NCBI RefSeq assembly: GCF_057098645.1
Contig: NZ_CM169472.1
Length of the DNA stretch: 64,000 nucleotides
Direction: 5' to 3' (one strand)
Within the stretch, counting starts at the first letter, position 1. Each line of letters starts with the position of its first letter. Positions 7,740 to 10,700 of this stretch are shown here, piece by piece. The position numbers were made by a program.

Positions 7740-10700
7740 TAAAAACCGGAAATAACGCCAGAAATGGTGGAAAAAATAGCCTAAATAGGCTGATTCGATG
7801 TGTTTGCGGGAAAAAAATCGGCCCAGATCCGCGAAATTTTAATCAACGAGTCAGCTTGGGAAGAAATGACCTGCTTATTCGCACCTTCCCTAAGCCTAAA
7901 CGGCGATGTCCGCGGGTGAAATCATAATCATAAAATATATTCCCCCCCAGAAGCCATTTATCAAAATTATGTCTTACACCTAAACCTATATTACCTATCG
8001 TGCGTTCTTCTTTTCGTTGCGCAGAAAACTGACTGAAATAGACTGTGCTCTGATTGTCATACCAGGGAACAAAATAGTCGATCGAACTGCCGTCCAGATC
8101 GCCACCCTGACCGATGGAAAGGTTAGAGCGAACTTTACCATAAGGAGAAAGCGCACCTTCAATATAAGACTGTGCAGATGATGTGATTTGCCCTTGCAGA
8201 TAGCTTCTCGCCTGGGATTCAAGAGCTTCTGGAGTCAGGTTCTCAAAGCCCTGCTGGGCGGACTCGGTAACGTAATTGGCACCACGTTCCTTGAAAGATT
8301 TGCCTTTGTTACTTTGTTCCTCTTGTTGAGCCGTTTCGCTTGCCAGATCAGGTAATGAAGATTCGCTTTGCTGGTGATGCTGCCAACTTACTGATTTAGT
8401 GTATGATGGTGTTTTTGAGGTGCTCCAGTGGCTTCTGTTTCTATCAGCTGTCCCTCCTGTTCAGCTACTGACGGGGTGGTGCGTAACGGCAAAAGCACTG
8501 CCGGACATCAGCGCTATCTCTGCTCTCACTGCCGTAAAACATGGCAACTGCAGTTCACTTACACCGCTTCTCAACCCGGTACGCACCAGAAAATCATTGA
8601 TATGGCCATGAATGGCGTTGGATGCCGGGCAACCGCCCGCATTATGGGCGTTGGCCTCAACACGATTTTCCGCCATTTAAAAAACTCAGGCCGCAGTCGG
8701 TAACCTCGCGCATACAGCCGGGCAGTGACGTCATCGTCTGCGCGGAAATGGACGAACAGTGGGGATACGTCGGGGCTAAATCGCGCCAGCGCTGGCTGTT
8801 TTACGCGTATGACAGGCTCCGGAAGACGGTTGTTGCGCACGTATTCGGTGAACGCACTATGGCGACGCTGGGGCGTCTTATGAGCCTGCTGTCACCCTTT
8901 GACGTGGTGATATGGATGACGGATGGCTGGCCGCTGTATGAATCCCGCCTGAAGGGAAAGCTGCACGTAATCAGCAAGCGATATACGCAGCGAATTGAGC
9001 GGCATAACCTGAATCTGAGGCAGCACCTGGCACGGCTGGGACGGAAGTCGCTGTCGTTCTCAAAATCGGTGGAGCTGCATGACAAAGTCATCGGGCATTA
9101 TCTGAACATAAAACACTATCAATAAGTTGGAGTCATTACCCGCTTTGCTTAATATTTATCTCCGGTGCCGCATAAGCAGCACCAGAAATAACGATTAGCG
9201 TTATATAGCGAATCCATCGCAGCATGTTTTTCCCTGTGAAAATTTAATTCTGAAATAATGTCTAATATTGTATTCCAGATAGCACAGGAACTGCACTCCA
9301 TAAGTGCTAAATATAATCTTAAAATTATAAGAATGTGACTTCACACATTTTTAATTAGTCGTTAATCTAATAGGAAAGAGATTATAATATTTATATTAGG
9401 AATATATAATGTGAAATCATATATTCCAGTGATATTAAACAATGACAAATTCAATACGGGTTTTAGAAATTAAACCGTGACCATGCTGGCAGAAATAATC
9501 CACCGCACCACACGCTTTTAATACCTGCAAAGGTTGGTGGCAGTCAGGACAAAGAGCCTGGACTATGAAATCTTTGTTACACGTTGCGCAGTGAGTAGCC
9601 TCGCCATTACGTTCGAGAGGGTTTTGGCAGATTGGGCAGCTGAGTTCCATAAATGATCCTCACATTTTTATGGATTTCCCTCTCCATATGGAAAGGGAAA
9701 CCAGATAAGTAATTACTTACTTTTCTTGATATGCTTCATCAGGCGCTTACGCTTGCGCATCTGGGTCGGCGTCAGGGTGTTACGCTTATTCGCATACGGG
9801 TTTTCCCCTTCTTTGAACTGAATACGAATCGGCGTCCCCATCACATCCAGAGACTTGCGGAAATAGTTCATCAAATAACGCTTGTAAGAATCCGGCAGGT
9901 CTTTTACCTGGTTACCGTGAATCACCACAATCGGCGGGTTATAACCACCAGCGTGGGCATATTTCAGCTTCACACGACGACCGCGTACCAGCGGCGGTTG
10001 GTGATCTTCAACAGCCATCGTCATGATGCGCGTCAGCATAGAGGTCCCCACACGACGGGTGGAGCTGTCATACGCTTCACGTACTGATTCAAACAAGTTA
10101 CCAACACCACTGCCGTGCAAGGCAGAGATAAAGTGCACACGAGCAAAATCGATAAAGCCCAGACGGAAGTCCAGCGTTTCTTTCACCTGCTCTTTCACTT
10201 CCTGACTCAGGCCATCCCACTTATTCACCACAATGACAAGTGAGCGCCCACTATTGAGAATAAAGCCCAGCAGCGAGAGATCCTGATCGGAAATACCTTC
10301 GCGCGCATCAATCACTAACATCACCACGTTGGCATCTTCAATGGACTGCAACGTTTTGATTACGGAGAATTTCTCTACAGCATCGGTGATTTTGCCGCGT
10401 TTACGTACGCCAGCGGTGTCAATGAGCACATACTCACGTCCATCGCGTTCCATTGGGATGTAGATGCTGTCACGCGTCGTGCCAGGCATGTCGTAAACAA
10501 CAACGCGCTCTTCACCAAGAATACGGTTAGTGAGTGTAGACTTACCTACGTTCGGACGACCCACAATCGCCAGTTTGATCGGCAGACTTTGCGGGTCGAA
10601 GTCGTCTTCCTCTTCTTCTTCGCCGTTCTCTTCCGCTTCAAATTGCGCCCAGTATTCAGCGTCTTCGTCGACTTCCTCTTGCGGTGCGAGATCTTCCATC

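Follow-up and report, generated by a model that had tools for sequence, protein, structure and literature searches.

The 209 bp of DNA between yfgJ and sinH (positions 9226-9434, minus strand), within the stretch of 64,000 nucleotides analysed here (the window), probably make up the whole intergenic control region of sinH, one of the ordinary H-NS-silenced kind. This reading draws on the sequence of the spacer and its comparison between genera, whereas its H-NS, sigma-70 and LeuO parts are taken from orthologues.

The working that we propose is as follows, in the direction of transcription. A hairpin past the yfgJ stop codon would probably end der-yfgJ transcription, and a very AT-rich stretch of about 70 bp would separate it from the promoter proper. 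The latter would consist of a conserved 20 bp block and, 33 nt further on, the -10 hexamer TACAAT without a -35 hexamer; such a sigma-70 promoter would be weak alone and dependent on a factor bound upstream. The transcript would then have a 5' untranslated region of about 35 nt, with a ribosome-binding site ahead of the ATG. H-NS would hold the promoter off in laboratory conditions, and LeuO-type antagonists or host-associated signals would lift the repression.

Position and base composition of the spacer

The genes yfgJ and sinH and the spacer between them are all on the minus strand. The spacer extends from the yfgJ stop (9435) to the sinH ATG (9225-9223) and is thus directly upstream of the latter. 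The yfgJ ORF (9435..9650) encodes a 71-amino-acid zinc-ribbon protein and is a divergent, island-linked allele. The sinH gene, also called iatB, encodes an intimin-like inverse autotransporter and heads the sinH-sinI-adhesin 'ila' cluster. In the window its 5' stump (9141..9225, minus strand), the ATG plus 28 codons with the signal peptide MLRWIRYITLIVISGAAYAAPEINIKQS, is followed by an IS1 of 768 bp (8373..9140) with the 9 bp target duplication CGCTTTGCT (8364-8372 and 9141-9149). An IS5-family element (6694..7889, plus strand) with the target duplication CTAA is found further down in sinH. As the gene is cut by both elements, the promoter described here would be a relic that drives nothing useful. 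The "sinH-like start" of the first-pass annotation is literally what is present, with only 28 sinH codons left ahead of IS1.

The same annotation called a segment of about 210 bp strongly AT-rich, and sliding-window GC calculation bore this out. The spacer has 25.4% GC (A80, C25, G28, T76) versus 52.5% in the whole window. Expressed as AT content this is 74.6% versus 47.5%, i.e. well above average, over a length exceeding the approximately 100 bp or more expected of an H-NS-silenced promoter. It is the AT-richest site of its length in the 64 kb (z = -5.7; all 209 bp windows: mean 0.525, sd 0.047). A GC content this low occurs in 0.06% of all 209 bp windows, every one of which overlaps the spacer; the lowest value (23.9%) belongs to 9241-9449, and the next independent minima are 34.4% (59147-59355) and 35.4% (18665-18873). 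With 100 bp windows, none of 25% GC or less was found in the 64 kb outside the spacer. The remaining non-coding gaps of the window have a median of 47.6% GC with none below 33%, and the GC content of the flanking genes is normal (yfgJ 45%, sinH 48-50%). The "many A/T tracts" that had been noted are a fair description of a modest number: four homopolymer runs of at least 4 nt, and six runs made up of A and T only that reach 8 bp or more, with a maximum of 18 bp.

Conserved parts of the spacer and the putative sinH promoter

The yfgJ-spacer-sinH layout is kept in 16 other loci, which are from Escherichia spp., Citrobacter, Pseudocitrobacter, Superficieibacter and another Enterobacteriaceae genome. 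In these loci the spacer is 192-218 bp long with 22-31% GC. Across the genera sequence identity to 9226-9434 drops to 33-40%, while length and GC content persist. The spacer of E. coli SMS-3-5 has the same layout, with 209 bp and 23.9% GC. The Salmonella spacer is longer (345 bp): an AT-rich core of approximately 235 bp is retained, and a GC-rich REP-like element of about 110 bp, carrying a classic terminator, lies between yfgJ and the AT-rich part. Four parts of the spacer are conserved, namely the hairpin after yfgJ, the 20 bp block, the -10-like hexamer and the ribosome-binding site, the last three being prominent in alignment-based and alignment-free scans alike.

The hairpin (9399..9427, minus strand) starts 8 nt past the yfgJ stop and has a 12 bp stem, GGAAUAUAUGAU-UUCAC-AUUAUAUAUUCC, with a dG of -11.5 kcal/mol (z = -3.2 and -4.5 in two runs). 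When 18 orthologous spacers were folded, most had a hairpin in the first ~75 nt, ten of them at z <= -2.9, with differing sequences; covariation was weak (two compensatory pairs). The stem is A/U-rich and lacks a clean U-run, and a scan of 9100-9750 detected no classic terminator consisting of a GC stem and a U-run. From these features the hairpin is probably a weak terminator of der-yfgJ. A stable hairpin, together with five ORFs of 20-50 amino acids overlapping the spacer, could also mean that a small RNA or a small protein is encoded in the spacer itself. We give this almost no credence: there was no Rfam match even at E <= 1, RefSeq annotates none of the short ORFs, and whole spacers diverge to 33-40% identity between genera. 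The short ORFs are regarded as occurring by chance.

The 20 bp block (9306..9325, minus strand) reads ATTTTAAGATTATATTTAGC in the window; its consensus across genera is TTTTTAGGAATTyATTTAGG. Between 17 and 20 of the 20 positions are matched in Salmonella, Citrobacter sp. MGH106, Pseudocitrobacter, Superficieibacter, E. albertii and others, and the alignment-free conservation scan gave z values up to 4.5. The block is a degenerate one, with 13-15 matching positions of 20, in the window and the alleles nearest to it, and can hardly be made out in that of SMS-3-5. Of the 18 spacers compared, 12 have 32-33 nt between the block and the -10 hexamer, a distance that E. albertii also allows; in two genera the gap is 21 nt. 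The shorter gap differs by approximately one helical turn, which suggests that the helical face of the block is kept. No second copy of the block was found in the 64 kb at up to three mismatches. By-eye comparison with the consensus sequences of RcsAB, PhoP, CpxR, SlyA, IHF, Fis, Lrp and sigma-E gave nothing convincing; the best of them, Lrp, agreed at about 10 of 15 positions. The block is a candidate site for a regulator or for alpha-CTD. A more specific proposal would make it the operator of a dedicated activator by which sinH and its partner genes are turned on in the host, the surrounding AT-rich DNA providing an H-NS 'off' state that this factor overcomes; we put this forward tentatively, as something that may be so but is more probably not.

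The -10-like hexamer TACAAT (9267..9272, minus strand) is recognised by its conservation in orthologues. In the alignment nearly all have TAnAAT or TAAACT, with TATAAT in Salmonella and two others, and the alignment-free scan gave z = 4.8. The hexamer is thus both close to TATAAT and conserved, as expected of a sigma-70 promoter. Reading the sequence 16-18 bp upstream, the best -35 candidates match at no more than three of six positions. The lack of a recognisable -35 hexamer suggests a weak sigma-70 promoter that needs an upstream factor. Transcription of sinH is predicted to start at about 9260, giving a 5' untranslated region of about 35 nt. The ribosome-binding site CAGGGA (9231..9236, minus strand) is 5 nt ahead of the ATG; AGGGA or AAGGA is kept in orthologues, and its z value reached 7.8 in the alignment-free scan.

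Promoter prediction by consensus scan, which the first-pass annotation had named as a check, produced in 9100-9750 only two weak matches on the minus strand (9415..9386 and 9339..9310), no more than in shuffled sequences. The TACAAT promoter, which emerged from the comparison of orthologues, was not called by the scan because it has no -35. One of the two matches offers a different promoter for the same function, with the -10 hexamer TATATT (9315..9310) inside the 20 bp block, the -35 hexamer GTCACA (9339..9334) and a 5' untranslated region of about 75-80 nt; TACAAT would then be fortuitous or a second promoter. This arrangement seems rather unlikely to us. Among Escherichia alleles TATATT is kept with (G/A)TCAC 17-18 nt upstream, but outside Escherichia and Salmonella the site reads TTCATT, TTTATT or TTAATT, by which the critical A at position 2 is lost, the -35-like TCAC is not kept either, and the number of scan matches does not exceed that in shuffles. 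A TGTGA-CT-TCACA palindrome at 9333-9348 was considered as a CRP-like site and rejected: its spacing is 2 instead of 6, a window-specific SNP at 9342 is needed to form it, and conservation is lost beyond close alleles.

Proposed silencing by H-NS and its relief by LeuO

H-NS silences AT-rich horizontally acquired DNA (xenogeneic silencing), and LeuO is an H-NS antagonist. Its extreme AT content would make the spacer a natural site of H-NS binding and nucleation. The 10-mer TCGATAAATT is the consensus of high-affinity H-NS nucleation sites and is not obligatory; the spacer has no match to it at up to two mismatches, versus 0.9 expected in composition-matched shuffles. TpA steps in the spacer are no commoner than its composition predicts.

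Data on an orthologue come from S. Typhimurium 14028s. By ChIP-exo, a 1.1 kb H-NS region (H-NS_Region_365; 2,701,924-2,703,062) is assigned to sinH, and at its centre lies a sigma-70 peak (RpoD_Peak_1213; 2,702,490-2,702,541) that is also assigned to sinH (PMC11770342 supplements). That these signals fall within the spacer is judged from geometry and from the gene to which the authors assigned them. According to the same supplements sinH is near silent in vitro (TPM 1.6-1.7 in extracellular bacteria) and reaches a TPM of 13-16 in macrophages, where the H-NS signal is down (LFC -0.46). In E. coli SMS-3-5 iatB/sinH was not expressed in standard media, its transcript rose approximately 15-fold on overproduction of LeuO, and transposon insertions presumed to drive leuO activated an iatB::lacZ fusion (PMC6714894). 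For sinH of E. coli, literature searches found no direct H-NS data or hns-mutant data.

The LysR-type regulator LeuO has a 19 bp palindromic operator made up of two 7 bp half-sites 5 bp apart, with the motif T-N11-A (Fragel et al. 2019, PMC6698644). The arms of the hairpin at 9399-9427 are palindromic and 5 nt apart, a spacing compatible in its geometry with such an operator.

The coding DNA behaves differently from what classic xenogeneic silencing would lead one to expect. In all loci sinH has 47-55% GC, and positions 1-9000 of the window have 48.5-52.7%, so the genes themselves are not AT-rich; island coding DNA with host-like GC content does not fit the classic picture. The first-pass annotation had proposed a promoter silenced by H-NS. 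In favour of this proposal, indirectly, are the conserved -10 hexamer and, by analogy, the H-NS, sigma-70 and LeuO data of the orthologues, including the H-NS ChIP signal in Salmonella 14028s; against it are the ordinary GC content of the sinH genes and the absence of the H-NS 10-mer.

According to another explanation the spacer is only a terminator plus filler, AT-rich through mutational drift, and sinH is transcribed mainly by read-through from der-yfgJ. The hairpin after yfgJ, the free turnover of most of the spacer sequence between genera, and scans that call neither a strong promoter nor a strong terminator are all compatible with it. Against it, the other non-coding gaps of the window are at approximately 48% GC with none below 33%; the spacer keeps its length, its base composition and a set of three short, constantly spaced motifs across genera; a sigma-70 ChIP-exo peak is assigned to sinH in Salmonella; and an iatB promoter fusion responds to LeuO. 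We consider this explanation improbable and prefer a dedicated control region of sinH.

Island boundary, significance and related systems

The sinH locus was found in 1744 of 5426 complete E. coli genomes (~32%). In island-less E. coli the stops of xseA and yfgJ overlap tail to tail, which puts the presence/absence boundary at the yfgJ stop, i.e. at the right edge of the spacer. The divergence between sequences has a different limit. The YfgJ protein of the window is 100% identical to that of Escherichia sp. E1V33, 96% to that of E. whittamii and 65% to that of the K-12 type. Comparison with the K-12 type and E1V33 shows that the 3' end of der (9713..9999, minus strand) is also part of a divergent, apparently imported block, which spans yfgJ and the last ~240 bp of der. 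Relative to the K-12 type, there are 21 mismatches in 9713-9950 and then three over the next ~1450 bp; relative to E1V33, identity is 98-100% up to approximately 9999 and 89-96% beyond. By these comparisons a recombination breakpoint is located inside der, at about 9950-10000. The idea that the AT-rich segment marks the junction between core (yfgJ) and accessory DNA can thus be kept in part: genomes with and without the island do part at the yfgJ stop, but yfgJ itself is divergent from the K-12 type and the breakpoint is inside der.

Could the AT-rich stretch be a scar left by a mobile island beside core yfgJ, or the attachment site of that island? The whole spacer is missing together with the island in island-less E. 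coli, and only about a third of the complete genomes have the locus. On the other hand, no tRNA was found in positions 1-20000 of the window, an integrase is missing from the annotated orthologous island, and the spacer is not flanked by meaningful direct repeats; the same spacer accompanies yfgJ-sinH in four other genera, and the discontinuity with the K-12-type backbone is in der, away from the spacer. We regard a scar as very improbable. Judged by its distribution, the AT-rich spacer has long belonged to the yfgJ-sinH unit of several genera and is conserved in it, and the sinH cluster looks ancestral to several Enterobacteriaceae genera and not recently foreign. The mosaic boundary inside der suggests that homologous recombination of the flanks, and not site-specific insertion, carries the island from one Escherichia lineage to another. 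An AT-rich spot beside accessory genes need not be an insertion junction.

The finding itself is an ordinary one, and since the gene downstream of the promoter is destroyed, its importance for this genome is small. SinH is a virulence factor of ExPEC and a vaccine candidate that is hardly expressed in the laboratory (PMC9937491, PMC12525524). The conserved layout of an AT-rich H-NS target, a 20 bp block and a -10 hexamer without -35 offers concrete sites for mutation in finding what turns sinH on.

The nearest known system is the iatB promoter of E. coli SMS-3-5 (Goh et al. 2019, mSphere, PMC6714894). The locus is orthologous, with the same gene order der-yfgJ-spacer-sinH-sinI-adhesin, and the 209 bp spacer, TACAAT and the ribosome-binding site are shared; the spacers are only ~64% identical, the 20 bp block of SMS-3-5 is degenerate, and in the window the downstream gene is dead. 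The sinH gene of S. Typhimurium (CS54 island) is likewise orthologous (74% amino acid identity) and has the same core, consisting of the block, a 32 nt gap, TATAAT, a 43 nt gap and the ATG, but its 345 bp spacer carries the REP-like element next to yfgJ. The E. coli intimin-like adhesin gene fdeC, reportedly repressed by H-NS and temperature in work of Easton et al. 2014, can be likened by description: its product is likewise an inverse autotransporter adhesin, it is not expressed under laboratory conditions and its repressor is H-NS, whereas its locus and promoter are different. With the general model of xenogeneic silencing, the spacer shares a promoter with AT content far above average at a variably present virulence-type cluster and a LeuO-type antagonist. 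It differs from that model in that only the 209 bp spacer is AT-rich, the genes having host-like GC content, and in that the cluster looks ancestral.

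Extent and composition of the spacer

The stop codon of yfgJ (ORF 9435..9650, minus strand) and the start codon of sinH (9225-9223, minus strand) lie at the two edges of the segment 9226-9434 and point in one direction; the segment is therefore the complete yfgJ-sinH spacer. Upstream of yfgJ are der (9713..11224) and then bamB, yfgM, hisS, ispG and rodZ. The SinH annotated in E. coli O145:H28 RM12761 has exactly the N-terminus that is encoded in the window (MLRWIRYITLIVISGAAYAAPEINIKQS).

The first-pass annotation had described this DNA as far more AT-rich than the flanking genes, and the computed values bear this out. 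The 209-bp spacer contains 25.4% GC (A80 C25 G28 T76) as compared with 52.5% for the 64-kb window, and in a sliding-window computation it had the lowest GC of all 209-bp stretches in the window (z = -5.7); equally low values were obtained for 0.06% of the 209-bp windows, every one of which overlapped the spacer site. For the remaining non-coding gaps of the window the median is 47.6% GC, and no gap is lower than 33%. The rank, the z-score and the comparison with the gaps show that the AT-richness is real, precisely located and far beyond chance. The next AT-rich 209-bp stretches independent of the spacer, 59147-59355 (34.4% GC) and 18665-18873 (35.4% GC), are far milder. Since the island genes are not AT-rich, the composition points to a local AT-rich promoter and not to an entirely AT-rich foreign block.

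Conservation of the spacer and its elements

A SinH scan with one genome per species yielded loci in E. whittamii, E. albertii and other Escherichia, in three Pseudocitrobacter, in Superficieibacter, in two Citrobacter and in one further Enterobacteriaceae genome. At every scanned locus where upstream DNA was included, sinH was immediately preceded by yfgJ in the same orientation, and the spacer was 192-218 bp long with 22-31% GC, as against 45-56% for yfgJ and sinH. Between genera, spacer identity to the window drops to 33-40%; with size and GC constant, this indicates that length and composition are kept while the sequence turns over. These comparisons mark the AT-rich spacer as an ancient part of the yfgJ-sinH unit that has been maintained, and not as a scar.

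A hairpin (9427..9399, minus strand; dG -11.5 kcal/mol, z -3.2 to -4.5) begins 8 nt past the yfgJ stop. Folding placed a hairpin of unrelated sequence near the 5' end of most orthologous spacers, and covariation within Escherichia is weak. The hairpin was not called by a classic terminator scan; it is probably a weak der-yfgJ terminator. A view of the spacer as a terminator with drifted filler conflicts with the conservation of its composition and motifs, and a small RNA or peptide encoded by the spacer found no support. In Salmonella the spacer reaches 345 bp: a REP-like insert of ~110 bp, rich in GC, precedes an AT-rich core of ~235 bp. In the Salmonella enterica locus (L025) this palindromic element and the U-run behind it (L025:2656-2765) separate the yfgJ stop from the core, and Salmonella yfgJ thereby has a classic terminator, which the Escherichia alleles lack.

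An alignment-free comparison with ten distant orthologues picked out three elements (z 4.5-7.8). The first is a 20-bp block (9325..9306, minus strand; consensus TTTTTAGGAATTyATTTAGG), which reads ATTTTAAGATTATATTTAGC in the window. In the more distant genera 17-20 of its 20 positions agree with the consensus, as against 13 in C. gillenii; the block is degenerate in the window allele (15/20) and almost gone in SMS-3-5. No convincing match to it was found among regulator consensus sequences. The second, a -10-like hexamer TACAAT (9272..9267, minus strand), is TAnAAT or TAAACT elsewhere and TATAAT in Salmonella and two others; no -35 for it is recognisable in the spacer. The gap between block and hexamer is 32-33 nt in 12 of the 18 compared spacers, a spacing that E. 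albertii also offers, and 21 nt in two genera, and because the shorter gap differs by about one helical turn, the helix face is kept. The most serious rival to a promoter at the hexamer is another promoter, with its -10 within the 20-bp block. The third element is the ribosome-binding site CAGGGA (9236..9231, minus strand), 5 nt upstream of the ATG.

The spacer has no match to the H-NS 10-mer consensus and no enrichment of TpA steps. A CRP-like perfect palindrome, TGTGA-CT-TCACA (9333-9348), has the wrong spacing, is kept only among close alleles and is probably due to chance; it arises from a window-specific SNP at 9342, the sole difference from the O145 spacer.

Island boundary and recombination seam

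Of 5,426 complete E. coli genomes, 48, mostly O145:H28, carry the window allele at 97% identity or more, and about 1,744 (32%) have the sinH locus as ~76%-identical alleles. The other genomes are K-12-like: xseA and yfgJ overlap at their 3' ends, and both spacer and island are absent, which places the presence/absence boundary at the yfgJ stop. The junction of core (yfgJ) and accessory DNA proposed by the first-pass annotation was thus right in position, but by protein identity yfgJ of the window is not conserved 'core': it is 100% identical to YfgJ of Escherichia sp. E1V33, 96% to that of E. whittamii and 65% to the K-12 type, from which it is about as distant as from the Citrobacter, Pseudocitrobacter and Superficieibacter proteins. 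In E. coli yfgJ is strongly dimorphic (window 9435-9650 versus 4002-4217 of the K-12-type, island-less locus L002), with differences nearly all in the first ~30 residues; the closest relative of the K-12-type YfgJ is a Pseudocitrobacter allele (76%).

Mismatches to the K-12 type number 21 in the final 238 bp of der (9713-9950) and 3 across the next ~1,450 bp, whereas identity to E1V33 is 98-100% as far as ~9999 and 89-96% beyond. Right of ~9950-10000 the window is ~99.8% identical to K-12-type E. coli; left of it the der 3' end, yfgJ, spacer and sinH are 98-100% identical to E1V33, with ~91% identity to K-12 in der. These shifts locate the true seam between backbone and import at a homologous-recombination breakpoint inside der, and the sinH cluster, together with its flank, seems to have been acquired from a divergent Escherichia lineage. 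That the spacer is an attachment scar is contradicted by this breakpoint and by the conservation of the spacer across genera; the search found neither a tRNA in window 1-20000 nor an integrase or flanking repeats at the island. This seam and the conserved 20-bp block are the only two, mildly new points.

Disruption of sinH and a proposed silencing model

In the window genome sinH is a pseudogene with two IS insertions. The coding sequence is broken behind codon 28 by an IS1 (8373-9140; 9-bp target duplication CGCTTTGCT) and, about 1.3 kb from the start of the gene, by a second element of the IS5 family (6694-7889), whose target duplication is CTAA. A search of the 5,426 complete RefSeq E. coli genomes, including the 48 carriers of the close allele, did not find the IS1 junction, which points to another IS-bearing strain as the host, possibly a Shigella-like one. 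IS1 prefers AT-rich, H-NS-associated targets, and the insertion (9141-9149) lies 76 bp outside the spacer, so the AT-rich neighbourhood may, speculatively, have attracted IS1 into sinH. In sinI, the window carries 72 extra bp (24 codons, in frame) at ~4178-4249 without a counterpart in the O145:H28 RM12761 locus (L001 ~9082-9093); the alignment gap is at a GTTGT common to both, and O145 sinI is correspondingly shorter (894 bp versus 978-993 bp in other alleles).

The layout would fit a sigma-70 promoter whose -10 is good but which lacks a -35, set inside DNA favoured by H-NS; such a promoter would be weak on its own and would need a factor bound upstream. The promoter and H-NS part of the earlier interpretation is reasonable and agrees with published data on orthologues. 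In S. Typhimurium 14028s, the ChIP-exo lists give H-NS_Region_365 (2,701,924-2,703,062) and, at its centre, a weak, in-vitro-only sigma-70 peak (2,702,490-2,702,541), both with sinH as the assigned gene (PMC11770342 supplements). From near silence outside host cells (about 1.6 TPM), sinH and sinI, for which co-transcription is reported (review PMC12525524), rose to 13-16 TPM inside macrophages (LFC about 2.15), where their H-NS signal was slightly lower (PMC11770342 supplements). In E. coli SMS-3-5, IatB (SinH) was undetectable under all laboratory conditions tried, transposon insertions that presumably drive leuO activated iatB::lacZ, and LeuO overproduction gave ~15-fold more iatB transcript (PMC6714894).

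In the window the promoter is pointless, since the two IS insertions break sinH. By analogy, the spacer would belong to a familiar class of elements, H-NS/LeuO-type promoters that are rich in AT and serve cryptic adhesin genes, and the window holds an unstudied allele. The SMS-3-5 iatB spacer is likewise 209 bp long (23.9% GC) with the same -10 and the same ribosome-binding site, although its sequence is only ~64% identical overall.
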